This document shows positions 903 through 32,403 of a stretch of 36,225 nucleotides of DNA, in pieces; position 1 is the first letter of the stretch; every line of letters begins with the position of its first letter. Location: contig MHCL01000008.1 of assembly GCA_001816915.1 (NCBI GenBank), forward strand, positions 17,040 through 53,264, written 5' to 3'. This DNA is from Candidatus Chisholmbacteria bacterium RIFCSPLOWO2_01_FULL_49_14. Its GTDB lineage: Bacteria > Patescibacteriota > Microgenomatia > UBA1400 > Chisholmbacteraceae. Both the position numbers and the translations under genes were made by a program. The notes below the pieces were generated by a model, which had not been told where the DNA came from, made no database searches, and saw only the letters and a list, made by a program, of their open reading frames with translations.

Positions 903-1111
903 TATTTATGCCAAGTACATGTTGTTACTTCTTTACTCACCTAAAGAAGTAACCAAGAAAGGGAGCCCTGTGAAACCCTGCCAGTGTATCTTCGCTTCGC
1001 TCGGCGGGAACCCTCGGAAATTCACCTTCGACTCGTACTCTCGCTAAGGTTCAGTTTCCGTTTCCCACTCGAGCTCATCTCGATGCACATCGGCACAGGC
1101 TTCACAACGGG
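903..1111 (+). repeat. Dispersed ~200-nt structured element, copy 1
   Basis: Perfect 12-bp stem GTTACTTCTTTA/TAAAGAAGTAAC (924-953), CAAGAAA linker, then a long imperfect hairpin CCCTGTGAA...GGAAATT...CAGTTTCCGTTTCCC...TTCACAACGGG. Same layout as 27235-27425 and 32189-32403. Confidence 0.8.
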
Positions 1112-1158
1112 GAAAGAGCTAAAAAAACAGAGATCGGGGGTAAATATGAAATATCGGA

Positions 1159-1435
1159 TGACTAATGACTACTGACTAATAACTAATGTTTAATGTTCAA
1201 GGTTTAATGTTTAAATATTAAATCTTGATTTCTAATCCCTAATTCCAAATTCCTAAACCCTGGATTCTCATTCTTCCGCTTGACACGGCCGTTATACTTT
1301 GAAAAAGTCAATGGGTGAGAATAAGAAGCAAGAAATAATGAGAAGAAAATAATGAGTAATTTAAAATCCTAAACCCTAAGCCATCTATCCTTAAACGCTA
1401 AAAAAGCTAATAACCTAATAATCTAGTCAGCTAAT
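1159..1435. repeat. Degenerate heptamer-period, strand-biased tandem repeat tracts
   Basis: Units such as GACTAAT GACTACT GACTAAT AACTAAT, GTTTAAT GTTCAAG GTTTAAT, TTCTAAT CCCTAAT TCCAAAT TCCTAAA. Confidence 0.7.
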
Positions 1436-1448
1436 ACGCTAGAATCCT

Positions 1449-3467
1449 ATGAAACTTGTCATCGTCGAAAGCCCGACCAAAGCCAGAACCCTCTCGAGAT
1501 ACTTGGGAAAGGGATATGAAATCGAAGCCAGCATGGGCCATGTCAGGGATTTGCCCCCCAGCAAGTTGGGCGTTGATGTCGAGCATGATTTTGCTCCGCT
1601 CTATGAGGTCGTTTCCGAGAAAGAAAAAATTGTCGATAAGCTTCGGTCTTTGGCAAAAAAAGCGGATGAGATTTACCTCTCCATGGACCCTGATAGGGAA
1701 GGGGAGGCAATTGCCTTTCATGTCAAACACCTGATCGGGAGAAACGGGAAGTTCAAACGGGTCGTTTTCCACCAGATCACCAAATCGGCAATTTTGGACG
1801 CGTTCACGCATCCGCGCGCGATCGATGATAATCTGGTTGACGCACAGCAAGCCCGCCGAGTTTTGGACAGACTGGTCGGATATACGCTGTCCCCGCTTCT
1901 CTGGAAAAAGGTGCGCCGGGGATTGTCAGCGGGCCGCGTCCAGTCGGTTGCCGTGCGTTTGATCGTTGAGCGCGAACGGGAAATCGAGGCCTTTAAGCCT
2001 GAAGAGTATTGGGTGATCGGCGCCGAGGTCACGAAAGCCGGTTCGCCTGAGGTATTCAGCATAGGCTTAGTGAAAATTGACGGCGAGACAGCAAAGGTGG
2101 CAGATAAAAAAACAGCCGATGCCATTGTCTCCGATCTCAAGGGCGCTGGGTATCTCGTCGTCCGGGTTGTGAGGAAGGAAGTCAAGAAAGGACCATATCC
2201 TCCGTTTACTACCTCCACCCTACAGCAGAGCGCTTCAAACGTCTTGGGTTTTACTGCCAAGCGGACCATGCGGGCGGCGCAAAACCTGTATGAGATGGGC
2301 CACATCACCTATCACCGAACCGATAGCGTTCACCTGGCCGCTGAGGCCAGAGCGTCAGCCCGATCTTACATCGAAAAAGCATATGGGAAGCAGTACCTCC
2401 CCGAGAATCCGAGGTTTTATAAGGTACGCAGCAAGTTAGCCCAGGAGGCGCATGAGGCGATTCGCCCGACCCGCGTTTCCGTCGATGCCGATTCGCTCAA
2501 GATCAAGGGGAAGGTGGTTTCTGATCTGCGGCGCCTGTATACGGTAATCCGAAAACGATTCCTTGCTTCTCAGATGAGCGATGCGGTTTATGATTCCACG
2601 ACCGTTGATGTGGAGGCGAAAGATAAAAATCCGAAATCCGAAGCACGAAATTCGAAAGTTTATCTTTTGCGGGCGAACGGAACGATCCTGAAGTTTGACG
2701 GATGGCGAACATTGTACAAACGCGACAGTGAAGATCGGGAGCTCCCGATACTTGAAGAAGGTGAGGGGCTGGATCTCAAGAATGTCCTGGCTGAACAAAA
2801 ATTTACCGAACCTTCGGCCAGATATACCGACGCAACGCTGGTCAAAGCGATGGAAGAGCGGGGAATCGGCAGGCCGTCAACCTACGCGCCGACCATCTCC
2901 ACCATTCTTGCCAGACAGTATGTTGAATATGATGAGAGAAAGTTCAAACCGACCACCGTCGGCATCGCGACCAATGACTTTTTGGTCGGTAACTTTGACC
3001 AGACGGTCGACTACGACTTCACGGCAGGCATGGAGGAGGATCTGGATAGAATCGCGCTCGGCAAAAGAAAATGGGTACCGGTTATTCGAGATTTTTGGGA
3101 GCCGTTTTTACGTAAAGCGGAGTTTGTCGAGAAAAACGCGAAGCGGGTGAAAGTGCCGACCGAGTCGACAGGGAACAAATGCCCCGTCTGCAAAGAAGGC
3201 GATGAAGTCATTCGGGTGGGCAGATTCGGAAAGTTCCTCTCCTGTTCAAGGTTTCCCGAATGTAAATATACCGCCAACTATGTCGAGAAACTCCAGGGGA
3301 TCAAATGCCCGGAGGATGGCGGTGATATCGTTATTAAAAAAACCCGCAAAGGGAAGACTTTTTTCGGTTGTTCCAATTACCCCAACTGCAAATGGGCGTC
3401 TTGGAGAGATCCGCGAGCATCCGGAAAAAAGTCAGTCGAGAAATCTGCACCACCAATCTCCGTCTAA
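1449..3467 (+). CDS. topA: DNA topoisomerase I (type IA)
   Basis: LVIVESPTK, DPDREGEAI, SAGRVQS, ITYHRTD (catalytic Tyr), QEAHEAIRPT, GIGRPSTY, C-terminal zinc ribbons. Confidence 0.98.
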   Translation: MKLVIVESPTKARTLSRYLGKGYEIEASMGHVRDLPPSKLGVDVEHDFAPLYEVVSEKEKIVDKLRSLAKKADEIYLSMDPDREGEAIAFHVKHLIGRNGKFKRVVFHQITKSAILDAFTHPRAIDDNLVDAQQARRVLDRLVGYTLSPLLWKKVRRGLSAGRVQSVAVRLIVEREREIEAFKPEEYWVIGAEVTKAGSPEVFSIGLVKIDGETAKVADKKTADAIVSDLKGAGYLVVRVVRKEVKKGPYPPFTTSTLQQSASNVLGFTAKRTMRAAQNLYEMGHITYHRTDSVHLAAEARASARSYIEKAYGKQYLPENPRFYKVRSKLAQEAHEAIRPTRVSVDADSLKIKGKVVSDLRRLYTVIRKRFLASQMSDAVYDSTTVDVEAKDKNPKSEARNSKVYLLRANGTILKFDGWRTLYKRDSEDRELPILEEGEGLDLKNVLAEQKFTEPSARYTDATLVKAMEERGIGRPSTYAPTISTILARQYVEYDERKFKPTTVGIATNDFLVGNFDQTVDYDFTAGMEEDLDRIALGKRKWVPVIRDFWEPFLRKAEFVEKNAKRVKVPTESTGNKCPVCKEGDEVIRVGRFGKFLSCSRFPECKYTANYVEKLQGIKCPEDGGDIVIKKTRKGKTFFGCSNYPNCKWASWRDPRASGKKSVEKSAPPISV

Positions 3468-3555
3468 CTCGAGAAATATTTCGTTTTCTTCGGTACGAAT
3501 TGCGATGTCTTTGCCGATTGCATCAACCCTGTTGTGTTGCTAGCATAACTGCACG

Positions 3556-5748
3556 ATGGCGATGTGGCAGGTTCGAAAACGCTCGGGAGAGACTGAAGAT
3601 TTTATTCCCCAGAAAATCACGCAATCGATTGTCAGGGCGCAGTCGAATGTCGGCGTTACCGATGCAGATCAGGCTAAGCACGTTGGATCGTTGGTTTTCT
3701 CCGACCTGCAGAAACGTTTGGCGTCGGAGCGCCTGATCGGTACGGACCAGATCGGAGATGCCGTGGAGCGGATTCTCATTGACGAGGCGCTCTATGACAT
3801 TGCCCGCGCCTACATCATTGCCAGAGAACGCCAGCGCCAGAAAACCAGGGCGGAGAAGCAATTGGGAGTTACCGATGACATTGGTCTTCCCTACAACTCG
3901 ATCGTGGTCATCCGCAACAAGTATCTCAAAAAAGACGATCAGGGGAATCCCATTGAAACGCCCAAGCAAATGTTTGCGCGGGTGGCAAAGACGCTCTCTT
4001 CTACGGAGAAAAAGCCCAAAGGTTGGGAGAGCAGATTTTTTGAGGTGATGACCTCGCTTCGCCTCCTTCCCGCCGGACGGACGCTTGCCAACGCGGGGAC
4101 GACCAATAACCAGATGGCCAACTGCTTCGTGCTGCCGATGCCGGACTCGGTCGAGGGTATTTTTGAGGTCGTTAAAGAAAGCTCGATTCTCAAGAAGAAC
4201 GGGGGGGCGGTCGGCTTCAACTTCGGCAAAATCCGTCCCAAAGGCGACGCGGTTGCCGGTACCACTGGCGAAGCCTGCGGACCCGTCGCGATCATGAAGA
4301 TCGTCAATGACGCCTCCGATATTCTATTGCAAGCGGGGGGAAGGCGAAGCGGGAACATGGTTGTCCTACCCGTATCCCACCCGGATGTGTTTGAATTCAT
4401 CACCTGCAAGGAGGATGAGTCGCTTTTACCCCATATCAATTATTCACTGGGAGTGACCTCGAAGTTTATGAACGCGGTTGAGAGAGATCTTCCGTGGGAT
4501 CTTATTAATCCGCGAAACGGAGAGGTTGTGAGCACGGTGTCGGCCCGCTCCATCTTCGAGCTTGCCTGCTCCATGGCCTGGCGGAATGGCGATCCCGGAA
4601 TGATCTTTCTGGACCGCATCAACAGGGACAATCCGACGCCCCATGTCGGGGCGCTCGAGGCCGTGAACCTCTGCGGAGAACAACCGCTTTTGCCATGGGA
4701 AGCGTGCAATTTGGGATCTCTCAATTTGGCGGCCCACCTGGTCAGCAACGGGAAGCGCAGCATCAACTGGGAGAAGCTCGAAGACTCGGTTCGCTTAGGA
4801 ATACGGATGCTTGATGACGTGATCACCGGCTGCCGTTATCCTGTCAAGAAAGTCGAGGAGACGGTCAACGCCAACCGCAAGATCGGGTTGGGGATCATGG
4901 GCTGGGCGGATATGCTGGTTAGACTTGGGATTCCTTACAACAGTGAGGAAGCGCTGAAGCTGGCGCGGCGGATGATGAGGTTCATCCGGGAGAAAGCGGA
5001 GGATGAAAGTTCCAGGCTCGGGAAGGAGAAGGGGAGTTTCCCCAACTTCAAAGGTTCTCTCTGGGAGAAACGAGGCTACAAGCAGTTCCGCAACGCGACT
5101 TTACTGACCATCGCCCCGACGGGTTCGATTTCCATGGCGGCCGGCGTCTCCTACGGCATTGAGCCGCATTTTGCCCTGGCGTTTTATAAGGAAGCGATGG
5201 GGGGCATTCAGTTGCCGGAAGTCAATGCCGATCTTCTTGAGGCACTGCGGGACGCCGGGATTGAGGAGAATGGTCTTCTTGATGAGATTGCGCAAACCGG
5301 AACGATCCAGCAGATGAGCCAAATCCCGGAGCGGATCCGCAAGGTCTTCGTCACGGCGCACGATCTTACCCCTCAAGATCATGTCCTCACCCAAGCGGCA
5401 TTCCAGAAATACACCGATAACGCGGTTTCCAAGACCATCAATATGGCGCATGACGCGCGGGTCGAAGATATCCAGGATGCGTTCATGCTGGCCTGGAAAA
5501 CGGGATGCAAGGGGATCACCGCCTACCGGGACCTCAGCAGAAAAGTGCAAGTACTCAATGTCGGGAAACATTCAACAGCCACAAGTCACAAGTCACAAGC
5601 TACAAATAAGAGAGATAATAAGATTTCCCTACAAGCTAATAAGCTAACAAGCTCTTTTTCGGAGTGTCCGCAGTGCGGGGCGACCATGCAGTTTGTGGAA
5701 GGCTGCGCGACCTGCCCGTCATGCGCTTTTTCAGTCTGTTCGCTGTAA
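3556..5748 (+). CDS. nrdJ: Adenosylcobalamin-dependent (class II) ribonucleotide reductase with N-terminal ATP cone and C-terminal Zn ribbon
   Basis: ATP cone VRKRSG..EDF; ANCFVL; GGRRSGNM; NLCGEQPL finger loop; TIAPTGSIS; SKTIN; C-terminal CPQCG...EGCATCPSCAFSVC. No nrdB nearby and no C-terminal YY motif (TAYR instead). Confidence 0.9.
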   Translation: MAMWQVRKRSGETEDFIPQKITQSIVRAQSNVGVTDADQAKHVGSLVFSDLQKRLASERLIGTDQIGDAVERILIDEALYDIARAYIIARERQRQKTRAEKQLGVTDDIGLPYNSIVVIRNKYLKKDDQGNPIETPKQMFARVAKTLSSTEKKPKGWESRFFEVMTSLRLLPAGRTLANAGTTNNQMANCFVLPMPDSVEGIFEVVKESSILKKNGGAVGFNFGKIRPKGDAVAGTTGEACGPVAIMKIVNDASDILLQAGGRRSGNMVVLPVSHPDVFEFITCKEDESLLPHINYSLGVTSKFMNAVERDLPWDLINPRNGEVVSTVSARSIFELACSMAWRNGDPGMIFLDRINRDNPTPHVGALEAVNLCGEQPLLPWEACNLGSLNLAAHLVSNGKRSINWEKLEDSVRLGIRMLDDVITGCRYPVKKVEETVNANRKIGLGIMGWADMLVRLGIPYNSEEALKLARRMMRFIREKAEDESSRLGKEKGSFPNFKGSLWEKRGYKQFRNATLLTIAPTGSISMAAGVSYGIEPHFALAFYKEAMGGIQLPEVNADLLEALRDAGIEENGLLDEIAQTGTIQQMSQIPERIRKVFVTAHDLTPQDHVLTQAAFQKYTDNAVSKTINMAHDARVEDIQDAFMLAWKTGCKGITAYRDLSRKVQVLNVGKHSTATSHKSQATNKRDNKISLQANKLTSSFSECPQCGATMQFVEGCATCPSCAFSVCSL

Positions 5749-5977
5749 GCTCTGTAGGTTACGGATTATTGACAGCTCGAGCTGAAGTGGGTAGCAGACG
5801 TTGGCAGGCGGGCCTGCCCTTCCTGCGCATTCTCCATTTGTAGTTTATAGCTTCCTCAAGAAGTTCTTTTTGAAGGATAGATTTTTTTTGATTGGAATAA
5901 AAACTTATCACTTGGCTGTGTTTTTGATCTGATGTTGGGGTAGTTTGGAAAATTGACCGACGTGTTACTATTCTGTT

Positions 5978-6562
5978 ATGAGAGATTTTAAAGAAGGCAA
6001 AGTAGTCCTTCCTATTACGAAGGATCGATATGGATGGGTAATATCAGAACCAAGTTTCGATCTATCGATTATCCAGGATCATGAGATGAACTTGAGAGTT
6101 GCTCGGGAACGAGGCATAGATCCTCTGAGTTTTTCAGATATCAGCCAGCAACTGGGTGAGGGTTGGAATATTTGGGTGTTATTTGATACCGTTTTGAGAG
6201 CTTTTCGTGGCAATTACTGGCGAGTACTGGAAATTGATCGTAAGCAGGAAGAAGTGGAACTTCAATTCTGCGGAAGGTTTGGGATTTCCGACTACAAGGG
6301 TATTGAGCCGTTTCGGCTTTCAGTTCACGAGCCGTTTTTTACTGGTGTGACTGTACAAAAGTTTGTCGATGATAAGTCAGGTGAGCCGGTTTCGCTTACG
6401 GAGTTTCATGTGAGAAAAGGGGGAAGGGAACCAATGGATGTTCTCCAGGAACTTAAATGTTCGGAAGAGATTTACTGGTCTCAAGGAGCCGGTCCTTATT
6501 TTGGCCTCTTAAATTTCAAGTATATCGAACCTCAGAGAGGTAGAATTCCTTCTTCCGGATAG
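5978..6562 (+). CDS. Hypothetical protein (194 aa)
   Basis: Long ORF filling the gap; extended -10 TGtTACTAT 6 nt before the ATG (leaderless-type). Confidence 0.7.
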   Translation: MRDFKEGKVVLPITKDRYGWVISEPSFDLSIIQDHEMNLRVARERGIDPLSFSDISQQLGEGWNIWVLFDTVLRAFRGNYWRVLEIDRKQEEVELQFCGRFGISDYKGIEPFRLSVHEPFFTGVTVQKFVDDKSGEPVSLTEFHVRKGGREPMDVLQELKCSEEIYWSQGAGPYFGLLNFKYIEPQRGRIPSSG

Positions 6563-6616
6563 AACATTTCAAATATTGCTTATCTAATAATAGAAATCAA
6601 ATTTCTACTCAAAGTT

Positions 6617-7072
6617 CTACTCCAAGTAGAGATTTACCACGTTGATTTCTTTGAAGAGTTTAAAATCTTGAATGTTTGCGGTCAGGATCTTCCGTATACC
6701 GTTGGAGAGCATGGTTGCGACCAATAAGAGATCAAACGTTTGTCTGGAATTTTTTAGGCGGTAGCGTTTTAAGAGTTTTGTGAAGAATGTCATGGTTTGG
6801 TCGTTGGGGTAGATTACCGTGAAGGAGGAAGAGGAGAGATATTTTTCTACCTCCAGAGACACCTGTTTTTGGGTGAGGGGACGCGTGATTCTCCCCGGAT
6901 TCGTGATCACTGCGACGAGCTCGAGAAGATTTTGGCTGGAGACCATGGCGTTGATCTTCCCAGAAAGTGCCTTGTCGTGATACACGGCGGCCTGCGCAAA
7001 GAATTTGCTGTCCTGATCCTGGTTATAGACGAGGACGTTGGTGTCAAAGAGGATCGGCTCAGACGTCTTCAT
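6617..7072 (-). CDS. PIN-domain (VapC-like) toxin
   Basis: ILFDTNVLVY, Q..LE, TFDLLLVATM, ILTANIQDF: the PIN acidic motifs. Confidence 0.88.
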   Translation of the reverse strand: MKTSEPILFDTNVLVYNQDQDSKFFAQAAVYHDKALSGKINAMVSSQNLLELVAVITNPGRITRPLTQKQVSLEVEKYLSSSSFTVIYPNDQTMTFFTKLLKRYRLKNSRQTFDLLLVATMLSNGIRKILTANIQDFKLFKEINVVNLYLE

Positions 7073-7295
7073 AGATCTCGGAGCGGCTCAGAGTTCCTTT
7101 GACTCCGCCGAGCTTGTGCCCGCCGATTCTTTCCTGACGGGTTTTCGGGAGTGGAGTGGAGCTCTTCAAATGCTTCTTCAGGCTTGCATGGATGATGTGC
7201 TTGAGGGTTTTTCCCTCCCGCAAGGCCGTCAGTTTCGCCTGGTAGAGAAGATTTGCGTCTAACTCGATGGTAGTTTTAACGGTCTGTTTAGCCAT
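7059..7295 (-). CDS. Ribbon-helix-helix (VapB-like) antitoxin
   Basis: KTTIELDANLLYQAK..A..EGKTL pattern; C-terminal LSRSEIYED; overlaps the PIN gene start by 14 nt. Promoter TTGACA-18-TAATAT lies 6 nt before the ATG. Confidence 0.8.
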   Translation of the reverse strand: MAKQTVKTTIELDANLLYQAKLTALREGKTLKHIIHASLKKHLKSSTPLPKTRQERIGGHKLGGVKGTLSRSEIYEDV

Positions 7296-7328
7296 AAAAC
7301 CATATTACCGTAAAGCTGTAAGAATTGT

Positions 7329-7357
7329 CAAGTCTCTCCCGTCTTGGGAGAGACTTG
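7329..7357. promoter_or_regulatory. Perfect 12-bp inverted repeat overlapping the -35 of the TA promoter (operator or hairpin)
   Basis: CAAGTCTCTCCC-GTCTT-GGGAGAGACTTG between divergent genes. Confidence 0.45.
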
Positions 7358-7495
7358 CGGCCTCCTGCGTGTGTTAACGGCTTAAGGAATACTCTTCAAA
7401 GAATATCAACTATCTTGACAGGGCACGATTGAAGCGATATATTGACCCTTTGTGTGTAAGAGTTACATACAGATTCAGCAAGAACTGAGGAATTT

Positions 7496-8053
7496 ATGAC
7501 AGAAGCAGACCCCAGAGATTATCGAGAAACGGATGAGGCAACAACGAATCCGATCTACGCGGAAGCGCTCAACCTACCGTATCTATTTGATGAGCATATG
7601 ATCCGTAAACCAATCGCGGTCGATGTTCCCCGGATGTTCGATCAGCTGGCTGAACAGGGGTTCAAGCTGGGAATAGAATCCCAGATCCGTTCGGCTTCGA
7701 TTGCCATCGAGGGTACATCTACGGTTAATCCGACGCCTAAAATTCTTTTCCATTTAGACGTTTACCCTTTGGAGGGTGAACTCGACAAGGCTCCTTCTGA
7801 AACTGTCGCTTACAGGAATGGCGGTGCCATCTCGACCGGCGAACGTCCAATTGGAAACTTTGTTGAGTATCTCGACCGAAAGTTGACTCTGACTCTTTTG
7901 TCTGACGGCAAAGCCGAAGTACGCTTCCTTCCTGGAAATTACACCTATCTTCCGTCACTGCAAAAATCCAGAGAGGCATTGAGCCGGGATGCAGATTTGC
8001 GCAGCACCGTCATCCGCACAATGCTTGCGTCAGTTGAAACGATTTCATCCTAG
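7496..8053 (+). CDS. Hypothetical protein (185 aa)
   Basis: Promoter TTGACA(7415)-17-TATATT and SD-like GAGGA before the ATG. Confidence 0.7.
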   Translation: MTEADPRDYRETDEATTNPIYAEALNLPYLFDEHMIRKPIAVDVPRMFDQLAEQGFKLGIESQIRSASIAIEGTSTVNPTPKILFHLDVYPLEGELDKAPSETVAYRNGGAISTGERPIGNFVEYLDRKLTLTLLSDGKAEVRFLPGNYTYLPSLQKSREALSRDADLRSTVIRTMLASVETISS

Positions 8054-8090
8054 AGTATAATGCGAGTGGTTTCAGATAATATGAACAGGT

Positions 8091-8372
8091 ATGAAAGATG
8101 AAAGGGGGAGTATGCCAACAGATGGAGGAATGAGAGGTGGAAGATTGAGTGGAGCTGGTCAACGAAGGGGTATTGAAGGGGAACCTCCTGCGAATCATGG
8201 AGAAGAGGCTGAGATTCAACCAACCGACGCAGCGGATCCCAGTCAGCAAGGGGATTCAGTCGAAGAAACGGATTTGCCGGTAGATGCTTCTCTTGATTCT
8301 CAAACAGCATCAATTGCTAAACGTATTGATTTGGAAGCTTGGCTGCGAATGAGCAGACCTGATCTTTATTGA
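8091..8372 (+). CDS. Small acidic, probably disordered hypothetical protein
   Basis: ORF fills the gap, with TATAAT upstream; low complexity, so support is weak. Confidence 0.45.
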   Translation: MKDERGSMPTDGGMRGGRLSGAGQRRGIEGEPPANHGEEAEIQPTDAADPSQQGDSVEETDLPVDASLDSQTASIAKRIDLEAWLRMSRPDLY

Positions 8373-8451
8373 AGAAGCGTTGCTCTTGGGTTACGCTTCA
8401 TTTGGATTTTCCTCTTGTTTTTTTTCACTGTCCTATGCTACCTTCAGTGCG

Positions 8452-10135: not shown

Positions 10136-10137
10136 AT

Positions 10138-10200: not shown

Positions 10201-10212
10201 AGAAGAGGATTT

Positions 10213-10824: not shown

Positions 10825-10827
10825 TCT

Positions 10828-23840: not shown

Positions 23841-23870
23841 TTGAGCATATCTTATCCATTTACCTTTGAT

Positions 23871-24689: not shown

Positions 24690-24782
24690 TTACATTCCCC
24701 AAAGCTCTGCTTCAAAGAGGACATCAGCCATTTTGACTTCAAGAAGATGTGATAGAATCCTCTCCTGCTGAATGAAAGTACT

Positions 24783-25679
24783 ATGAGAGGAAAAATTGAG
24801 GCACATCCCGGAGAACTCTCCCGAAACTCTGCTGAGACAATCATCGCGAGAGCGGGGGAACTGTATCCCGGGGTATTCGGAGAACGAGAACTTCGGATGT
24901 ATGGGGATTTATTCGTGGAGGGAAGTGTCCTCACCCCCGAACGATTGGCGTTTATCCAGCCGGAGTACGGGCGGTTTTTCCCGAGATCGGATATACACCC
25001 TCTCATCTATATCAAAGAGGGCATAGATTTTCCACATACTCAAACAGCACATACAGTCGATGCTTTTCTTGGTCCGTCTGCGGGAGGAAAAGACAGCATT
25101 CTTGATATTGTCAAGGAAAATCATCCGTATGTTCGGATCCGGACAACGACGACCAGACCTCCCAGAAGAGACGCATCGCAGGATGAGATTTTGGAAGCCA
25201 GATATGAATTTGTAACAGCAGAGGAGTTTGTTGAACTTGAAAGGGGCGGAGGATTTTCAGAAGTTCTCTCACCGGATATGCAAGGAAAGTACCGGTATGG
25301 GACATCGATTCAAGCTGTAGAGCGAGCGCTTAACCGAGATCTGCATCTTGTTATCTGGAGGGGGGATATATTGGGATTACCGTATTTCCGTTCTTGGATG
25401 CAAAACTATCATTCGGAAATTGATTTTCTCTCGGTTTTTGTCTTACCAAAGATGCCGATCGCGGAATTATGGCAACGGATGACAAGGAAGCGTGGAGTTG
25501 AGCAGGCGACTGCCTGGAGATTCCCGAAAGGTCTTCTGGAAATCCACAGCGCGGCTCAAATTGTCGACTGTCTGGTGCTCAATCCTTCTGATCCATCAGG
25601 AGAACCTCGAGAAGCAGCCGCTGCAACGCTCGCACTTTTTCGGCGTCAAAGCAATGGGCTCGTATTAGGTAGCAGTTGA
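24783..25679 (+). CDS. gmk: Guanylate kinase-like protein with a ~90-aa N-terminal extension
   Basis: GPSAGGKDS, TTTTRPPR, YEFVT.EEF, YRYGT. Confidence 0.75.
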   Translation: MRGKIEAHPGELSRNSAETIIARAGELYPGVFGERELRMYGDLFVEGSVLTPERLAFIQPEYGRFFPRSDIHPLIYIKEGIDFPHTQTAHTVDAFLGPSAGGKDSILDIVKENHPYVRIRTTTTRPPRRDASQDEILEARYEFVTAEEFVELERGGGFSEVLSPDMQGKYRYGTSIQAVERALNRDLHLVIWRGDILGLPYFRSWMQNYHSEIDFLSVFVLPKMPIAELWQRMTRKRGVEQATAWRFPKGLLEIHSAAQIVDCLVLNPSDPSGEPREAAAATLALFRRQSNGLVLGSS

Positions 25680-25833
25680 TTTTATTGCGATAAATAGTTA
25701 CAATCCCAGCATCACACAGCTTTCGACTTAAAAACTCCTGAGTTTGAACTTCAACCGAGTCGAACTTGGTGAGTCGGGAGCGAGGAAGCCCTCCTTCGCG
25801 TAAAGCTACGGAGGGCGAAAAGGAGTTTGTTTT
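25676..25833 (+). promoter_or_regulatory. rpsB promoter and structured leader (candidate S2 autoregulatory element)
   Basis: TTGATT-17-TACAAT; TTCGACTT/GAGTCGAA stem; AAACTCCT (25732-39) is complementary to the SD region AGGAGTTT (25821-28). Confidence 0.55.
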
Positions 25834-26562
25834 ATGAGTACCTACGAAGTCTCGTTGACTGATTTGCTGGAAGCCGGATGTCATTTCGGACATCAGGTAC
25901 GCCGCTGGAACCCGAGGATGAAGCCGTACATCTATTCGTCCAAAGACAGCGTGCATATTTTTGATCTGGCAAAAACTGCACAAATGCTTCAGGAGGCTTG
26001 CGAATATGTCAAAAGCATCGCGATGGAGGGGAAGATTCTCCTGATTGTGGGCACCAAACGCCAGGCGAAGGCCATCGTTCGGGAAGAGGCTCAAAAAGCG
26101 GGAGCTCCGTTTGTGAGCGAGCGTTGGCTCGGAGGCACCATAACCAATTGGGATCAGATAAAAAAGAGTATTGATTTACTTCTTGATATGCGTGATAAAA
26201 AAGAGAAAGGTGAGTATAAAAAATACACTAAGAAGGAAAACGTTCTCATCGACAGAGAGATTGAACGATTGGAACGTTTTTTCGGCGGATTGGCGCAGCT
26301 TAAAAAAGCACCCGATGCGATATTTGTTGTCGATACTCATCGGGAGGCGGTGGCTGTTGCCGAGGCGAATAACCGAGATGTCCGGGTTGTCGGAATCGTT
26401 GACACCAATGCTGATCCGAGACTGGTTGATCACTTGATTCCGGCAAATGATGATGCTGTACGGTCCATCAAACTCATTACTTCAAAAATTGCCGAGGCGT
26501 ATGCAGAAGGAAAGATGCTCTTTGAGAAGAAGAAAGGGAAAGAGAGGGAGAATAGCAAATAG
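25834..26562 (+). CDS. rpsB: 30S ribosomal protein S2
   Basis: LLEAGCHFGH..RWNP.M, VGTK.QA, RWLGG..TN, IPANDDA.RSI. Confidence 0.98.
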   Translation: MSTYEVSLTDLLEAGCHFGHQVRRWNPRMKPYIYSSKDSVHIFDLAKTAQMLQEACEYVKSIAMEGKILLIVGTKRQAKAIVREEAQKAGAPFVSERWLGGTITNWDQIKKSIDLLLDMRDKKEKGEYKKYTKKENVLIDREIERLERFFGGLAQLKKAPDAIFVVDTHREAVAVAEANNRDVRVVGIVDTNADPRLVDHLIPANDDAVRSIKLITSKIAEAYAEGKMLFEKKKGKERENSK

Positions 26563-26679
26563 CAGATGGATTTATAATAAGTTAAAAGTTCAAAATGAAA
26601 AGTGTAAAGTTACAGTTTAAAGTTAAAAATTAACAGACAAAAATCAGAGAATAAAGAGAATAGAGAAAAGTAGAGAAAT
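26563..26679 (+). repeat. A-rich periodic repeat tract between rpsB and tsf
   Basis: AAGTTAA AAGTTCA AAATGAA AAGTGTA AAGTTAC (7-nt period), followed by AGAGAATA-like units. Confidence 0.65.
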
Positions 26680-27144
26680 ATGGGAAAAATAACGACAGCG
26701 GCGATAAAGAAACTTCGGGAAAAAACGGGAGCCGGAGTGATGGAAGTAAAGAAGGCTCTTGAGGAAAGCGCGGGAGATGAATCCAAGGCTACGAAACTCA
26801 TCCAGAAGCGTGGACTTGTAAAAGCCCAGAAGCGGGCCGACAGGGAGGCCACTCAGGGAGTCATCGCTTCCTATGTCCACCAAGGAGGAAGGGTTGCGGT
26901 TTTAGTCGAACTCGCCTGTGAGACTGATTTTGTGGCGCGTACGGAGGAATTCCAGAAGCTCGCCAATGAACTTGCAATGCAGGTTGCCTCGATGGAACCC
27001 AAAAAGGTTGCAGACCTACTCAAGGAGGAGTACATTCGCGATCCGGGCAAGACCGTTGAGCAGTTGATCGGGGAGACTGTGGGAAAGACCGGGGAGAAGA
27101 TTGAAGTCAAACGCTTCGCGCGCTTCAGTTTGGGAGAGGAATAG
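26680..27144 (+). CDS. tsf: Elongation factor Ts (short form)
   Basis: IKKLREKTGAG.M..KKAL, ELACETDFVA, GEKI.V.RF.R. Confidence 0.97.
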   Translation: MGKITTAAIKKLREKTGAGVMEVKKALEESAGDESKATKLIQKRGLVKAQKRADREATQGVIASYVHQGGRVAVLVELACETDFVARTEEFQKLANELAMQVASMEPKKVADLLKEEYIRDPGKTVEQLIGETVGKTGEKIEVKRFARFSLGEE

Positions 27145-27234
27145 GGTTTCTCCGTAAGCTTTCAATTTTTCCGTTTCAAAAGACATAAAGTCCTTTGTTT
27201 ATGCAAATGTTTATGCAAACGGAGGATACTTTCT

Positions 27235-27425
27235 TGCTTGACTCCAAGCACGGGTTGTTCATTCTTTTGCTTGTCCAAAAGAATGAACCAAGAAAAGGAC
27301 ACCCTCTGAAATCCTGTCGGAACTGCTGCGATTCGGTTGGCGGTTCCCTCGAAAATTCCCTCCGGTCAGTTTCCGTTTCCCGCTCAGCCTCATCTTGCAG
27401 TTCAGCGACGAGGCTTTCAAAAGGG
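27235..27425 (+). repeat. Dispersed ~200-nt structured element, copy 2
   Basis: TGCTTG/CAAGCA mini-hairpin; perfect 13-bp stem 27257-27288; long hairpin with apex GAAAATTCCCTCCGGTCAGTTTCC. Confidence 0.8.
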
Positions 27426-27531
27426 AGATTTGATTAACAGCTTCAGGAGCTCTCTGAGTGTTCTTGATTGACTGCGTTCAAAGGGGGCATTTCGCGTAGT
27501 AGCCTATAGCCTGTGATATAATTCTCGATAT

Positions 27532-28251
27532 ATGTCCCTTGAGGATGCATTGCGGAAAGCCGAAGAACAAATGGCGCAGCAGGAAAGGGAAGAGAAAGTA
27601 AAAAAAGAGGCTGCAAAAGAGGCTGCAATTGAAGCATCTGTTCAAATGCAGAAGCGGAAAGCCGAGCAGTTGAATGATGAGGCAAGGAGTCTTTTGCGTC
27701 CGATGGTGCAAACAATCCAGCGAACCGGTATTGTGCAGATTCTGGAGGAATTGGTAAAGACAAAAAAACTTACTAAAGAGGTTAGAGAGCCGGAGTCAGC
27801 TTCGCCTCAGGTCATATTTTTTGTCACACATTGGGCTAAGCCGGGGACGGATAAGAGAGTAGATAATGTGAAATTCGTCGGTCTTGAGCTTGATGGAGGG
27901 TTTGGGCAATATATTCGCCAATATGCCGAAAATGGTGAAGAAGATGAGGTTGTCAAGCGCCTAAGCAAACTTCGTGCTTGTAAGAGAATGTGGCTAGAGT
28001 ACCCTCCTCGGGTAGGTCTAAAATGGGGTTATTACACATATTACTCACCTTATACATGGAATGATGAAGACAGTGACTGGAATGAAATCTTGTTTCTCTT
28101 TGACAAGGTTGATCATGGGTTTGCCCTGTCGGCAAGGGCAGGTCGTGGTAATACTTTTCCGGAAGTAGATCAGCTTCCTGAGAGGGATTGGAGTACTCAG
28201 ACCATTGAACAGTTGGTTGCAAAAACCTATTTGGCGGAAGTACAGTCGTAG
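27532..28251 (+). CDS. Hypothetical protein with an N-terminal coiled coil (239 aa)
   Basis: E/K/A/Q-rich N-terminus; TGaTATAAT 9 nt before the ATG. Occupies the usual pyrH position but has no UMP-kinase motifs. Confidence 0.72.
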   Translation: MSLEDALRKAEEQMAQQEREEKVKKEAAKEAAIEASVQMQKRKAEQLNDEARSLLRPMVQTIQRTGIVQILEELVKTKKLTKEVREPESASPQVIFFVTHWAKPGTDKRVDNVKFVGLELDGGFGQYIRQYAENGEEDEVVKRLSKLRACKRMWLEYPPRVGLKWGYYTYYSPYTWNDEDSDWNEILFLFDKVDHGFALSARAGRGNTFPEVDQLPERDWSTQTIEQLVAKTYLAEVQS

Positions 28252-28535
28252 TAACGGAGATTGATTTGCGGTATCTGCAATCTTGCCTTTTCTTCTCTCG
28301 GCTGAACACAGTTTCTGATGCTTTTTTCTAACTTCAGTATTGAGTACAGGTTCGCTTGCTCATTCGATTTCTTTCAGCGAGTTCTAGTGAGTTTACTCTT
28401 GAGAAATACTTTATAACTGCGGTCCGGGCGGATGGCATTTATAGAGTATTTTGAACTGTTGATGATCTTTATGTGGAGGTGTGTAGGTATTTGTTTTTGC
28501 ACGGCGACGGGTTTCGTTTATAATGTCCTTACGTT

Positions 28536-29093
28536 ATGGAACATGAAATTTTAATTCAAACCAGAACTGACATGGAGGCGGTCCTGAGCGTGGTCGTTGA
28601 GGATCTGGCGACCGTTAAAACCGGAAGGGCGAAACCTTCACTCATTGAGCGGGTGATGATAGAGGTCTATAACATGAGAATGCCGCTTATTGAACTGGCA
28701 ACTATTTCCGCACCCGATCCTCAACTACTAGTCGTTCAGCCTTGGGATGAGTCGGTTATTCAGGATATCGCGAAGGGCATCTCGCAGAGTCAAATCGGCT
28801 TAAATCCGGTGGTTGACGGCTCGATCATCCGTCTGCAGATTCCTCCCTTAACCGAAGAGCGCAGGGAAGAGTATGTTACGCTCGTGCGCCAAAAGATCGA
28901 GAGCGGGAGGGTCATGCTGCGGCAGGCGAGACAGGACTCGAAAAAGCGGATTGAGGGGTTGAAGGGAGAGCCGGGAGTTTCCGAGGATGATATTTTTCGT
29001 CTGTTAACGGAGCTTGAGAAGGTTACTGATGAGCATACAGAAAAATTGGAAGCTCAAGGGCAGGACAAAGAAGCGGAATTGAGGACGATTTAG
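28536..29093 (+). CDS. frr: Ribosome recycling factor
   Basis: TGRA.P, VQPWD, GLNP..DG..IR..IPPLTEERR. Confidence 0.96.
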   Translation: MEHEILIQTRTDMEAVLSVVVEDLATVKTGRAKPSLIERVMIEVYNMRMPLIELATISAPDPQLLVVQPWDESVIQDIAKGISQSQIGLNPVVDGSIIRLQIPPLTEERREEYVTLVRQKIESGRVMLRQARQDSKKRIEGLKGEPGVSEDDIFRLLTELEKVTDEHTEKLEAQGQDKEAELRTI

Positions 29094-29099
29094 AAGATG

Positions 29100-29200
29100 G
29101 CATATCAATGTTTAATATTTGAGGTTTAATGTCCAATGATTTAAGATTTAAGATTTAAGACAAGAAAATAGAGAACAGAGAGCAACGATTTAAGATAGAA
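29100..29200 (+). repeat. Heptamer-period repeat tract
   Basis: GTTTAAT ATTTGAG GTTTAAT GTCCAAT G ATTTAAG ATTTAAG ATTTAAG. Confidence 0.65.
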
Positions 29201-29235
29201 GCTTCGGGAATGAGGCAGACAAGCGGAGACCAGAA

Positions 29236-30432
29236 ATGACTTTTTTGATTTTTCTTGGGGTTTTGTCGCTGCTGGTTTTTGTGCATGAAGCCGGACATTT
29301 TTTAGTGGCAAAAAAGGCTGGCATCCGTGTTGAGGAATTCGGTTTCGGCATTCCACCCCGGATCATCGGGAAAAAAATCGGAGAGACGATCTACTCTTTG
29401 AACCTCCTGCCCATCGGAGGATTTGTCCGGCTTCTCGGTGAAGACCGGGAAGAGGTCAGTGAGAGTGACAGGCTGGGTTTGACGCGAGAAGAGTTGAAGA
29501 AACGGGCCTTTTTCACGCAACCAAAACGGATCCGGATAGCCGTGGTCGTTTCCGGTGTGATCATGAACTTCCTCTTAGGTGTGGTCTTATTCAGCGGATT
29601 GTATACCGCGATTGGGATCCCGACCGCGGCGGATGGCGTGCAAATTGTTGAGCTTTTTAAAGATTCGCCGGCCGCTTCGGCATTTGAGCTCGGAGATGAG
29701 GTTGTCTCCGTTGAAGGGACCGCGGTGCAAACACCGCAGGAATTCCAGGATTTAGTTCAAGGAAAATCGGGACAGGAGGTTGGATTTGAGGTGCTTCGAG
29801 GCGGGGCGCTTACCATTATCACGGCATTGGCGCGCAGCGAGCCACCGGTGCACTACGGAGCACCAACCTTACAGTTGTCGGATGATAAGAGGGGAATCGC
29901 TTGCGTACGGCCGGCAAATCAGGAAGGGGCGCTGGGAGTCGTCATCTCGTCAAAAACGGAAATGATGCATTATCCCATCTGGCAGATGCCGTTTCGTGCC
30001 GCAGGTTTTGGTCTGAAAGTTGCCTACGGGTGGGGATCCAACATCATCCGTGGTCTTGGGGGTCTTTTGACTCAGCTTGTCTGTGGGTCCGTCCCGCAGG
30101 ACATCGGCGGTCCGGTTGAGATTGCATTCCTCATTTCCGAAGTTTCCAAAACCGGGTTTGCTCCGCTGATCAACCTGGTGGCGGTGCTTTCCATCAACCT
30201 CGCGATCGTCAATCTCCTGCCAATTCCTGCCTTAGACGGAGGGAGGCTCCTCTTTATCATGATGGAGGCAGTGATTGGGAGAACGATTTCGCCAAGAGCC
30301 GAGCGTTTGACCCATGCGGTCGGTATGGCGCTTCTGTTGGCACTGATGTTTGCCATTACCGTTCAGGATATTCTGCGCCGCTCCGGCGCGGAGAGTTTGG
30401 GCGCGTTGGTTGAGCGTGTTGTCCGGATGTGA
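29236..30432 (+). CDS. rseP: Site-2 (M50) membrane zinc metalloprotease with PDZ domain
   Basis: HEAGH, GFG, P.GGFV, NLLPIPALDGG. Confidence 0.93.
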   Translation: MTFLIFLGVLSLLVFVHEAGHFLVAKKAGIRVEEFGFGIPPRIIGKKIGETIYSLNLLPIGGFVRLLGEDREEVSESDRLGLTREELKKRAFFTQPKRIRIAVVVSGVIMNFLLGVVLFSGLYTAIGIPTAADGVQIVELFKDSPAASAFELGDEVVSVEGTAVQTPQEFQDLVQGKSGQEVGFEVLRGGALTIITALARSEPPVHYGAPTLQLSDDKRGIACVRPANQEGALGVVISSKTEMMHYPIWQMPFRAAGFGLKVAYGWGSNIIRGLGGLLTQLVCGSVPQDIGGPVEIAFLISEVSKTGFAPLINLVAVLSINLAIVNLLPIPALDGGRLLFIMMEAVIGRTISPRAERLTHAVGMALLLALMFAITVQDILRRSGAESLGALVERVVRM

Positions 30433-30856
30433 GATTTTGCGTGCCTTTCATCCGTCCCCGATGGTGGGTGATTCGTGAAGTTGACAATCTCGGGACGGGT
30501 AATTTTCCCCTCGCGCCTCGGGTAAATGGTCGAACGATGGAGGATTCACCGACTTTGAGATCGACGGCATTTTTTATCATGAGGCCGTTCTTGAGGAAGA
30601 TCACGCGTGGCAGTACTACTACCGGTTTTTCCTGAGCGTTGAGGATTACGATGGGCTCTTTATCGCTTTCGGTGAGATGGGCTCTGATCGGAGTCTCCGT
30701 TTCAGCAAAGAGAACGACGTCTTCGTCGACCGCAATTCCTTGTTCAGATACGTCATCCAATTCCTGCCTTTTTCCTTGCTCGTTTGATCTTCCTCTTCCC
30801 AGTTTCCGTATTTCCAAATAGTGGGAGATTTCTGCACCCGCTTCCGTATTACTCAT
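30356..30856 (-). CDS. Hypothetical protein (166 aa), convergent with rseP and overlapping its 3' end
   Basis: Fills a ~480-nt gap; TGcTATCAT and AAAGGT upstream of ATG 30856. Confidence 0.5.
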   Translation of the reverse strand: MSNTEAGAEISHYLEIRKLGRGRSNEQGKRQELDDVSEQGIAVDEDVVLFAETETPIRAHLTESDKEPIVILNAQEKPVVVLPRVIFLKNGLMIKNAVDLKVGESSIVRPFTRGARGKLPVPRLSTSRITHHRGRMKGTQNLTSGQHAQPTRPNSPRRSGAEYPER

Positions 30857-30913
30857 GATTACCTTTGTTGGCCATGATAGCATTTTTAAGAAAGCTTTGT
30901 TATGATTTCTGAG

Positions 30914-32158
30914 ATGTTGCAATCGACACTTTTCCCAAAAACGAAGAAGGAAGCGCCCAAGGATGCTCAGAGCATCAATCATCGGCTGTTGGTGAGGGGA
31001 GGGTTAATTGATCAATTGATGGCAGGTAGCTGGACGCTCTTGCCGCTCGGATGGAGGGTTGTCTCCAAGATCAATCAGATTATACGGGAAGAAATGAACG
31101 CAATCGGGGCGCAGGAACTGCTTATGCCGCTTTTGCATCCCAAAGCGATTTGGAATGAAACCGGTCGTTGGGATGTGGCGCATGAGATTATGTATAAGCT
31201 CAAGGATGTTCGGGAGCGGGAATTCGTACTTTCCTTCACTCATGAGGAGATCGTGATGGATCTTCTGCGCAAGCACATCTCGAGCTATCAGGATCTCCCG
31301 ATCGCTGTCTACCACTTTTCCACCAAATTCCGCAATGAACTGCGAGCGCGTTCAGGCATTCTGCGTGGCAGAGAGTTTCTCATGAAAGATTTATACAGCG
31401 CCCATACCGACGAGAAAGATTTGCAGCACTACTATGAAATGGTGAAGGAGGCATACGGGAAAATCTTCACGCGATTGGGATTCACCACTAAGATCATTGA
31501 AGCCGCAGGCGGTGTGTTTACCCAGCAACATACCCATGAGTTTCAAGTGATTACGCCGGGCGGAGAGGATACCATCTATTATTGCGATCGATGCACATGG
31601 GGTCAAAATAAAGAGATTTATTCCGGAAAAGCGGGGGACCGCTGTCCACAATGCAAAACGGGAAGCGTCATTTCCGCAAAGGCGATTGAAGTGGGGAATA
31701 TCTTTCCGCTGGGAACCCGTTACGCGGAGAAGATGGGCGTCAACTTCACGGATTCGAGAGGGATAAAGCATCCGGTGTGGTTCGGAAGCTACGGCATCGG
31801 TCCGACACGAGTATTGGGGGCGTTGGTTGAGGTTTCCCACGATGATCGAGGCATTATTTGGTACCCGCAAGTTGCGCCGTTTGAGGTCCACTTGGTGGAA
31901 CTGAAGACGAAAGACGCAGGACTAAAGACGGAAGAAATTTACGGGCGACTTCAAGATGACGGGATTGATGTGTTGTTGGATGACCGGGATGTCTCGGCCG
32001 GGGAGAAGTTTGCGGACGCGGACCTCATCGGGATTCCGGTCCGCCTGGTTGTTTCGCAAAAAACAGGAGATCGTGTTGAGTGGAAGCGAAGAGATTCAGA
32101 GAAGGCTGAGCTTCTTTCTTACGCGGATGTCATTGACAGACTGAAGAAATTAACGTAG
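30914..32158 (+). CDS. proS: Prolyl-tRNA synthetase (short bacterial type without a full editing domain)
   Basis: THEE, KFRNELR.R.G.LRGREF.MKD.YS, IEVGNIF.LG, YGIG..R, GEKFADADLIG. Start 30914 lies 7 nt after TGtTATGAT. Confidence 0.96.
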   Translation: MLQSTLFPKTKKEAPKDAQSINHRLLVRGGLIDQLMAGSWTLLPLGWRVVSKINQIIREEMNAIGAQELLMPLLHPKAIWNETGRWDVAHEIMYKLKDVREREFVLSFTHEEIVMDLLRKHISSYQDLPIAVYHFSTKFRNELRARSGILRGREFLMKDLYSAHTDEKDLQHYYEMVKEAYGKIFTRLGFTTKIIEAAGGVFTQQHTHEFQVITPGGEDTIYYCDRCTWGQNKEIYSGKAGDRCPQCKTGSVISAKAIEVGNIFPLGTRYAEKMGVNFTDSRGIKHPVWFGSYGIGPTRVLGALVEVSHDDRGIIWYPQVAPFEVHLVELKTKDAGLKTEEIYGRLQDDGIDVLLDDRDVSAGEKFADADLIGIPVRLVVSQKTGDRVEWKRRDSEKAELLSYADVIDRLKKLT

Positions 32159-32188
32159 AAGAGATATTTGATTTATCATTATTTGATT

Positions 32189-32403
32189 TGCTTGTGCCAA
32201 GCAGTCATTGACCATTTCTTTGCTCATCCAAAGAAATGGTCGAAAGAAAAGATGCCCCATGCTGCGTCGGTGGCTGGACCATCGACCCCACTTGCAGTAG
32301 GGTCTGCGCTTTTCTTTTCGGGAAGCCTTCCGAAATTCCCTCCGGTCAGTTTCGGCTTTCCTCTCAAGAAAAGCGGATCCAGCCGCACCGACTCCGCCAA
32401 GGG
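32189..32403 (+). repeat. Dispersed ~200-nt structured element, copy 3
   Basis: TGCTTG/CAAGCA; perfect 13-bp stem 32210-32241; long hairpin with apex GAAATTCCCTCCGGTCAGTTTC. Confidence 0.8.

Follow-up and report, generated by a model that had tools for sequence, protein, structure and literature searches.

A dispersed, modular family of structured intergenic elements with a pseudoknotted head and a probable triple helix

H-type pseudoknots braced by a triple helix are found in the core of telomerase RNA and in the SAM-II and preQ1-II riboswitches, and long-stem pseudoknots are found at frameshift sites of the infectious bronchitis virus (IBV) type. Among the repeats dispersed through bacterial genomes, the Correia/NEMIS, ERIC, bcr1 and RUP families are transcribed, resemble miniature inverted-repeat transposable elements (MITEs) and carry long hairpins that can affect mRNA processing or stability. 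Here we describe a structured intergenic element present in three copies in a 36,225-nucleotide stretch of DNA (the window) from Candidatus Chisholmbacteria bacterium RIFCSPLOWO2_01_FULL_49_14 (GenBank assembly GCA_001816915.1, contig MHCL01000008.1, positions 17,040 to 53,264). The genome (G000) comprises 1.21 Mb in 29 contigs, is 90.3% complete and carries the window on contig C8. The copies belong to an undescribed family of dispersed, non-coding, modular structured elements that is found in a single order of small-genome bacteria of the Patescibacteria type and, at lower frequency, across the phylum.

Layout of the three copies

The copies lie on the + strand at 900-1115, 27233-27430 and 32188-32403 and share one layout, which from 5′ to 3′ consists of a small hairpin (P0), a second hairpin (P1) with a perfect stem and a 6-nt loop, a purine linker, a segment that pairs with the loop, and a rod closed by CCC...GGG. 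An earlier note on this DNA, made from the sequence alone, had described the same five features, and each is present close to where that note had placed it. The rods end at 1111, 27425 and 32403, and the apex sequence GAAATTCCCTCCGGTCAGTTTC is present in copies 2 and 3 and split by an inserted hairpin in copy 1. The parts are given below, with the evidence in brackets.

908-920, + strand: copy 1, degenerate P0 mini-hairpin region (sequence read; aligns with P0 of the other copies)
924-953, + strand: copy 1, P1 hairpin of 12 bp, strands 924-935 and 942-953, loop CTCACC at 936-941 (sequence, folding)
954-965, + strand: copy 1, linker CAAGAAA (954-960) and pseudoknot strand GGGAG (961-965), partner CTC-A-CC with one bulged A (bulged pairing by eye)
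966-1111, + strand: copy 1, type A rod closed by CCC...GGG, apex at 1013-1060 with inserted side hairpin (model 174.3 bits, folding)
27235-27250, + strand: copy 2, P0 mini-hairpin TGCTTG/CAAGCA (sequence, folding)
27257-27288, + strand: copy 2, P1 hairpin of 13 bp, strands 27257-27269 and 27276-27288, loop CTTGTC at 27270-27275 (sequence, folding)
27289-27301, + strand: copy 2, linker CAAGAAAA (27289-27296), which mirrors the upper P1 3′ strand CAAAAGAA, and pseudoknot strand GGACA (27297-27301), partner TGTCC
27302-27425, + strand: copy 2, type A rod with conserved apex at 27348-27375 (model 144.6 bits, folding)
27458-27487, + strand: remnant of the 3′ end of a type C element (…TGCGTTCAAAGGGGG), downstream of copy 2
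32189-32203, + strand: copy 3, P0 mini-hairpin TGCTTG/CAAGCA (sequence, folding)
32210-32241, + strand: copy 3, P1 hairpin of 13 bp, strands 32210-32222 and 32229-32241, loop CTCATC (sequence, folding)
32242-32254, + strand: copy 3, linker GAAAGAAAA (32242-32250) and pseudoknot strand GATG (32251-32254), partner CATC
32255-32403, + strand: copy 3, type B rod with longer base helix, an extra side hairpin and the same apex at 32328-32355 (model 60.2 bits, folding)
32420-32443, + strand: remnant of the 3′ end of a type A element, downstream of copy 3

The model scores refer to R1, a covariance model with 170 positions and 57 pairs whose source sequences are ten type A copies, with copies 1 and 2 among them and copy 3 outside them; the corresponding E-values for copies 1, 2 and 3 are 2.3e-41, 5.1e-34 and 4.1e-13. 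Folding energies gave z-scores of -4.28, -3.14 and -6.82, respectively, with none of 200 shuffles as stable as the natural sequence in each case, and single-sequence folds reproduced the head-plus-rod layout in all copies. Open reading frames (ORFs) of 80 and 106 amino acids overlap copies 2 and 3, but a protein-coding reading was set aside in view of insertions and deletions of many lengths and of the base-pair covariation.

Covariation in the helices, the pseudoknot and the linker

A MAFFT alignment of the type A copies, with the structure taken from one sequence, had 85.4% of its cells paired, compared with 31.5-45.9% when the partners were slid, and 26 pairs were altered on both sides as against 6-12 in the slid versions. 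A larger, model-aligned set of 36 sequences from 14 genomes had 88.7% of the cells of the 57 pairs paired (35.9-50.5% slid) and changes on both sides in 51 of the 57 pairs (23-31 slid), with 0 of 500 shuffles reaching the observed values, figures that lean towards the structure as the alignment was fitted to the model and the sequences are related. The helices are nevertheless safe because of the size of the gap and because the first alignment was model-free. The P1 pairs covary across the 36 sequences, and among 55 heads 644 of 660 P1 cells (97.6%) are Watson-Crick, with three G·U and seven A·C. The only invariant positions of the head lie in the P1 stem (T7, T11, T12, A21, A22 and A26); in the linker, at least 90% of heads retain A38.

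The loop of P1, together with its closing base, pairs with the segment after the linker through at least four contiguous Watson-Crick pairs in 49 of 56 heads taken from the own genome and its relatives. These 49 heads contain 24 distinct sequence versions of the pairing, for example TGTC/GACA, CGTC/GACG, GTGCCC/GGGCAC, CACCC/GGGTG, CAGGC/GCCTG and CACA/TGTG. The remaining seven heads include the copy 1 type, CTCACC/GGGAG, in which the pairing, drawn by eye, requires a bulged A. The pseudoknot, which the earlier note had offered as a candidate on three copies, is thus supported by the 24 covarying pairings of a larger set, and its view that structure is conserved over sequence holds for P1, the rod and the loop-to-downstream pairing, all of which show compensatory changes.

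Hence the 5′ head is an H-type pseudoknot, in which stem S1 is P1 (12-13 bp) and stem S2 is the helix of 4-6 bp formed by the loop. One or two loop nucleotides would cross to S2, and S2 would continue into the CCC/GGG-closed helix, which could stack upon it. A pairing of the linker with the T-rich stretch before P0 was rejected, as inspection of several copies by eye showed no conservation.

A further relation, new beyond the earlier note, is that the linker covaries position by position with the stem that it crosses. Read backwards from the knot, the linker equals the upper P1 3′ strand read from the loop, as in the strand/linker pairs CAAAGAAG/AAGAAAG, CAAGAAAG/AAAGAA, CAAAAGAA/AAGAAAA, CAAAAGAG/GAGAAAA and CAAAAAAT/AAAAAA. 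Over seven positions the mirror matches number 309 of 343. Reassigning linkers among heads lowers the count to 266 ± 5.2, with 309 reached in 0 of 2000 shuffles; this test is inflated by the relatedness of the sequences. In 41 of 49 heads the distance from the knot to the G of the linker equals that from the loop to the G-C pair of P1 or exceeds it by one. In 12- and 13-pair stems alike, the base that opens the linker invariably matches the pair four steps up from the foot of P1; from helix geometry, such a constant offset would be expected of a strand that leaves the helix end and re-enters a groove.

Since mirror repeats are not products of slippage and do not pair by Watson-Crick rules, base triples are their natural reading. 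The linker of 7-9 nt would run back along the upper seven or eight pairs of P1 and form one triple per position. The mirror covariation thus points to a probable triple helix in the head, with individual triples and groove assignments put forward here as predictions.

A modular family, its sites and its neighbours

An iterated nhmmer search of the own genome gave 14 full and about five partial copies and R1 gave 15 matches, more than the three copies that the earlier note had listed. Its view of the element as multicopy and non-coding is supported. A strict hairpin search of this genome for further heads returned known copies only. The copies are 70-97% identical and fall into three body types: A, which includes copies 1 and 2; B, comprising copy 3 and three others; and C, with three copies whose rod ends in TGCGTTCAAAGGGG.

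Among 61 genomes of the same order R1 is positive in 14 (own included), with 1-21 copies per genome and a locus GC ranging from 0.34 to 0.61 across the order. In an even sample of 151 genomes of the phylum it is positive in five, and a head-only model of 48 positions (R2) in 15, the own genome included in both counts. Rods are 10-170 nt long. That of G044 is a hairpin of 10 nt, after which comes a different domain; five genomes (G083, G110, G158, G180 and G200) carry another rod type ending in GCTCAA(A/T)GGGG, and in G191 the apex motif occurs without the head. The minimal head, at the G044 loci L030 and L039, is 57 nt long. The occurrence of heads with other bodies makes the element modular, with a conserved head and an exchangeable body.

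Rfam 15 at gathering scores gave no match anywhere in the window, and permissive E-value scans with copy 2, the type A, B and C loci, the G044 head and the G110 version gave nothing but weak, unrelated hits and a single tRNA. This agrees with the view that the element matches no described Rfam family. Full-text literature searches of partial coverage found no description of it.

Collections of phages and plasmids searched with copy 1 (blastn, distant mode) gave zero matches. Pattern scans of IMG/VR for two head classes gave one and four contigs, of which the full model matched two of five; one match lies near an ArdC-like gene and another near an ORF with a weak phage minor-tail match below the Pfam cut-off. 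One of these contigs (L106, 11896-11951) and three related contigs, putatively of mobile elements, carry a minimal head (P1, linker and knot) in a conserved place, about 770 nt downstream of the ArdC-like anti-restriction gene. In contigs of four DNA runs the summed depth over the P1-linker region at 27268 reaches 81.6 (X8) and 155 (X9), most flanking bins being in single figures. This peak suggests a widespread occurrence of the head in those communities; as contig depth sums over organisms, it was not counted as evidence. In the same runs, whose contigs are short, no contig joint cleanly skips an element, and one joint, from 27385 to 32378, links copies 2 and 3.

Comparison of sites between genomes gives some indication of the history of the family. 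At the tsf, proS-cofD and topA-upstream sites, full elements are missing from three genera of the same family, and the proS-cofD spacer is 32-49 nt in those relatives as against 333 nt in the own genome. The spacer after tsf in G002 holds a stretch like a type C 3′ end (…CTCAAAGGGGGCATT) in the same place as the remnant downstream of copy 2 in the window, and the difference at tsf therefore looks like decay rather than new insertion. Other sites are shared: own copy C6a with G002 C3:581074 (antisense in both), own C13 with G002 C3:100227, own C1a with a G028 copy (both after ychF) and own C17b with G002 C3:8162 (both before rpsA). At L085 (G002:C3:8340-8690), upstream of rpsA, a unit of about 24 nt (…CTTGAATTGCTGCGTTCAAAGGGG), with a small hairpin and a G run, stands in three to four tandem repeats; it also lies downstream of own copies and is found once alone in the own genome at C16:24529-24542. 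Besides being the stub of a type C element, this unit may be an independent small repeat.

Two pairs of copies are near-identical within unrelated flanks, namely copy 3 and the C13 copy (97% over about 220 nt) and C1a and C1b (about 93% over about 345 nt, by eye), and we read these as probable recent transfers between loci. In C13 and in G044 L039 a new copy begins at P1, right after an old P0, P1 5′ strand, loop and four further bases. Many copies have 24-28-nt 3′ ends of other types downstream, and in both C1a and C1b a full type A element is followed by a series of C, B and A 3′ ends. These arrangements are consistent with a family that would persist by copying between loci, newer copies overwriting older ones so that 5′ and 3′ stubs remain, and copies then decaying. 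Copying into resident copies could be gene conversion or site-directed replacement.

No partner enzyme could be assigned. Profile searches of the own genome (90.3% complete) gave no match to PF00078 (reverse transcriptase), PF01548 (IS110) or PF07282 (TnpB zinc ribbon), the last search being confined to TnpB. There are two tyrosine recombinases and four diverged Y1 (HUH) genes of the RAYT type, encoding proteins of about 220-230 amino acids, whose best match is the NCBIfam REP-associated tyrosine transposase (RAYT) model at 40-51 bits, under the 80-bit cut-off. These genes (C16:5258-5941, C7:36357-37016, C4:19713-20402 and C6:25860-26546, all outside the window) are each bracketed by a short palindrome of their own, such as CCCCACATTTAATGTGGGG or TTCCACCCCCGGAGTGGAA, unrelated to the element; two of the palindromes are multicopy in the genome, in the classic REP-RAYT layout, making four separate pairs within 1.2 Mb.

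These genes could suggest that the element is a non-autonomous transposon of the REPIN or MITE type, moved by the RAYT-like transposases of its genome, and its multicopy state, patchy distribution, strand bias and empty sites in relatives would all suit such a transposon. However, the palindromes that flank the RAYT-like genes on both sides are none of them related to the element, and no element match lies beside a Y1 or RAYT-like gene in the own genome. The distributions differ as well: among the 61 genomes Y1 is found in 46 and the element in 14, with the element present without a Y1 match in G007 and G051, and 18, 16 and 9 Y1 matches without an element match in G037, G059 and G022. Terminal inverted repeats and target duplications were not seen by eye in flanked alignments, where the ends are blurred by older stubs and no dedicated search was made, and copies 70-97% identical do not resemble a recent burst. 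We therefore consider a transposon of this kind very improbable. Membership of the REPIN/REP-RAYT group itself was rejected, as the repeats do not flank RAYT genes and their presence is not coupled to such genes across the 61 genomes. The earlier note had pointed to linked HUH/RAYT or reverse-transcriptase genes as something to look for; the own-genome profile searches, the distribution of Y1 and the palindrome flanks revealed none. An all-against-all comparison of ORFs (those within 4 kb of own copies, and all ORFs in loci with about 1.5-kb flanks from relatives and viral contigs) likewise gave no recurrent neighbour family beyond synteny.

The genes beside the element are unrelated housekeeping genes, with no consistent association of any gene family with the flanks. 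In the own genome the upstream neighbours include EF-Ts, ProRS, YchF and an HtrA-like protein and the downstream neighbours topA, cofD, tgt, rpsF, ligT, rpsA, an aldolase and an S49 peptidase; in relatives they include PCC, a histidine phosphatase, CutA, DNA ligase, an M23 peptidase, MreC and S1. Such diversity argues against a riboswitch. Relatives supplied 22 distinct copies with usable flanks; 16 of 20 downstream genes and 9 of 18 upstream genes share the strand of the element. Most copies in the own genome follow a co-oriented gene, three are at convergent gene ends, and the two on contig C6 lie on the strand opposite to every neighbouring gene, their P1 stems being damaged.

The co-orientation of the downstream gene in relatives, together with a distance of 12-50 nt to the start codon in several low-GC genomes, would favour a host RNA acting in cis on the expression of the downstream gene, whether as riboswitch, protein-binding leader or thermometer, as would the sites upstream of rpsA and downstream of ychF, which are kept across genera or families. 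Against such a regulator, the downstream genes have no common function, there are no conserved unpaired nucleotides able to form a pocket, and some copies stand at convergent gene ends or antisense to their neighbours. Furthermore, copy number varies from 1 to 21 and the distance to the Shine-Dalgarno sequence is inconsistent. A cis-regulatory role of this kind hence appears very improbable.

Orientation follows the composition of the chromosome. Measured on the strand of the element, the GC skew of the flanks is above zero in 43 of 49 copies, exceeding +0.05 in 37 and falling below -0.05 in one. A strongly skewed domain (about 0.08-0.17) exists in the own genome and in G002 alike, most of the rest being roughly zero (0.00-0.05), and gene direction does not account for this because contigs with 90% same-strand genes have near-zero skew. 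Eight strongly skewed contigs, about one third of the own genome, hold 13 of its 18 element pieces, and on G002:C3 eight of ten copies lie in the first 230 kb. All ten copies on G002:C3 are on one strand, three of them antisense to both neighbours. The skewed regions are contigs C1, C8 (which holds the window), C9, C10, C12, C13, C16 and C17 and G002:C3:1-230000. The remainder, of near-zero GC skew, shows a marked AT skew, a pattern that is unusual and that recurs in the relative from another genus.

Some further features of the window adjoin the copies. Upstream of topA, which starts at 1449, a motif CCGCTTGACA-N7-TATACTTTGAAA(A/G)AGT at 1270-1305 is common to the own genome and G003 and looser in G001 and G002; its spacing is below that of a standard -35/-10 promoter, and it may be a topA regulatory site. 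AT-rich, short, imperfect tandem words (TAATGACTAA, CTTATTAGC and AGCTAAT-like) occupy 1150-1240 and 1340-1448, preceding topA, and such words adjoin several elements, including own C1a on its upstream side. Between tsf and frr, an ORF of 239 amino acids at 27532-28251 has no Pfam match; the same position holds an ORF of 216 amino acids in G002 and no ORF in G001 or G003.

The folding strand and comparison with known systems

The explanation that we favour overall, though tentatively, is a + strand RNA in which head and rod form a barrier and which spreads by copying between loci. Whether the acting molecule is + strand RNA, in putative transcripts, is in our judgement about evenly balanced. 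The RNA would be made within intergenic or untranslated-region transcripts, and the triplex-braced knotted head with its rod would serve as a sequence-independent mechanical and nuclease barrier, or as a processing signal, with no ligand sensing. All three parts of this explanation, its molecule, its role as a barrier and its way of spreading, are our inference. The geometry is favourable, in that one or two nucleotides over a helix of 4-6 bp and 7-9 nt over 12-13 bp suit the rules for A-form H-type and minimal IBV pseudoknots. Of 29 sequences, 28 retain a U·G pair at the apex, which supports + strand RNA, as does the co-orientation of the neighbouring genes, both downstream of the relatives' copies (16 of 20) and upstream of most own copies.

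A number of observations weigh against this explanation. Structures selected in place as RNA usually have many more G·U pairs, but outside the invariant pair there is no G·U excess (57 G·U and 53 A·C in the helices), a wobble pattern that suits either pairing at the DNA level or neutral decay of copies whose sources were perfectly paired. In copy 2 the opposite strand has an equally good fold (z -3.71), so that folding energy alone cannot name the strand. A linker that matches like with like, A with A-U and G with G-C, is the canonical Hoogsteen prediction for the - strand, whereas the + strand linker should occupy the minor groove, where we know of no like-with-like rule. Orientation tracks the G-rich strand, as the 43 positive flank skews among 49 copies attest, and five copies run antisense to the genes on either side, among them an intact one that two genera share at an orthologous site. 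Scans for promoter and terminator consensus sequences gave counts at shuffle expectation and nothing consistent at the elements.

Several of these observations would be accounted for if the folded molecule were single-stranded or extruded DNA, most coherently the - strand, which we regard as possible and as less probable than RNA. The pyrimidine linker would then occupy the P1 major groove as the third strand, running parallel to the purine strand, of an intramolecular triplex of T·A-T and C+·G-C, and the loop of 1-2 nt would cross the narrow minor groove of B-form DNA. From helix geometry a - strand RNA seems excluded here, since so short a loop would not cross the wide minor groove of 4-6 pairs, but B-form DNA could accommodate it. 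The structure might serve as a structure-based mobile element, or as a signal related to replication or supercoiling and polarised with the chromosome.

In favour of DNA, the mirror covariation is exactly that expected from Hoogsteen isomorphism, mismatches of the G·T and A·C kinds are about equal in number with P1 at 97.6% Watson-Crick, both strands fold, and nested and truncated copies are frequent. The bias with GC skew (43 of 49), the concentration of copies in the strong-skew domain of G000 and G002, and the single strand shared by all ten copies on the 866-kb contig G002:C3 regardless of local gene direction also fit. However, the G-rich strand is the leading strand in most bacteria, and if this holds here the folding strand would be the C-rich leading-strand template, which is less exposed as single-stranded DNA. 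The invariant apex U·G would become a conserved C·A mismatch on the - strand, and conservation of the internal loops and apex of a 150-nt rod is more usual in protein-binding RNA. Likewise, no cognate HUH enzyme, recombinase or other enzyme was found, the four RAYT-like genes having unrelated palindromes of their own and Y1 genes, in 46 of 61 genomes, a distribution unlike that of the element.

A more specific proposal is a DNA-level device, a one-strand, self-folding triplex-pseudoknot locked by the loop pairing and extended by the rod, which we consider rather unlikely. In such a device the fold would form in single-stranded or supercoiled DNA and act as a replication-polar strand signal or as the form recognised by a mobility system.

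Whichever molecule folds, the element is a candidate for a new Rfam or repeat family and an annotation marker for intergenic regions of Patescibacteria-type genomes. Spare DNA is scarce in small-genome groundwater bacteria, yet this genome keeps about 16 copies of a non-coding element of 200-300 nt, some at the same site across genera. The head offers an unusually clean natural case of three-way covariation between a hairpin, a loop pairing and a third strand, and the 57-nt minimal head is a directly testable object for a triple helix in RNA or DNA. If RNA acts, as we tentatively favour, bacterial transcripts would contain a stability or processing module based on sequence-independent knot-plus-triplex structure. 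If DNA acts, the head would be a rare selected DNA tertiary structure tied to chromosome polarity, and the device just described would define a class of genome element by its DNA tertiary fold. Dispersed structured repeats are a known kind and the tertiary motif is unusual; to these we add an acting molecule and a function that we infer.

In its head the element is like the H-type and IBV-type knots, since the loop pairs downstream and the connecting strand lies along the stem and covaries, and like the minimal IBV knot in particular in having an S1 of about one helical turn and a return loop of 8 nt. It differs in that it stands outside any coding frame, is not a ligand sensor, has no conserved pocket, is multicopy and dispersed, and has its head fused to a replaceable rod. 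Moreover, the third strand in telomerase RNA and SAM-II is a U-rich loop 1, whereas that of the element is purine-rich on the + strand and comes from the 3′ end of S1. With H-DNA the element shares a homopurine/homopyrimidine mirror repeat with a short spacer and, on the - strand, an exact T·A-T and C+·G-C match; in the element the mirror is joined to an inverted repeat (P1) and to the loop-pairing segment, and all three covary, whereas plain H-DNA needs neither.

Among repeats, the REP/BIME and REPIN-RAYT systems are likewise short, intergenic, structured, strand-biased and spread genome-wide, and RAYT-like genes occur in the genome. Those repeats, however, are palindromes of 20-25 nt in inverted pairs, whereas the element has 170-250 nt with a pseudoknot head and does not flank the RAYT-like genes. 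The Correia/NEMIS, ERIC, bcr1 and RUP repeats are comparable in being intergenic, 100-200 nt long and endowed with long hairpins, and are often co-transcribed. In contrast, the element is an asymmetric head plus rod in which terminal inverted repeats and target duplications were unseen, and its structure is kept by covariation across the families of an order over a GC range of 34 to 62%. The ends of IS200/IS605 elements, PATEs and the omega RNAs of TnpB and IscB are also structured, strand-specific and sometimes pseudoknotted, with a dispensable protein gene. The element differs in that its genome has no TnpB zinc-ribbon match and no copy was found beside a Y1 gene, and it has no guide-like variable end, its variable loop pairing internally.

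The earlier note had likened the element to the R200 repeats of Pseudomonas. By its description in Silby et al. (2009, PMC2718517), R200 is a Pseudomonas-specific repeat of P. fluorescens, 320 bp long and 60% G+C, with no structure listed. Both are intergenic repeat families of a few hundred bases and, on that description, this is the only trait they share; the likeness is not supported, and no link in sequence or structure is to be expected.

The element lacks the defining features tested of Rfam families, of REPIN/RAYT, of IS200/IS605-derived elements, of retroelements and of riboswitches. Collectively, these comparisons suggest that in structure it most resembles a triple-helix H-type pseudoknot stacked on a rod, and in its genomic behaviour the REP/BIME, ERIC and Correia-type repeats.

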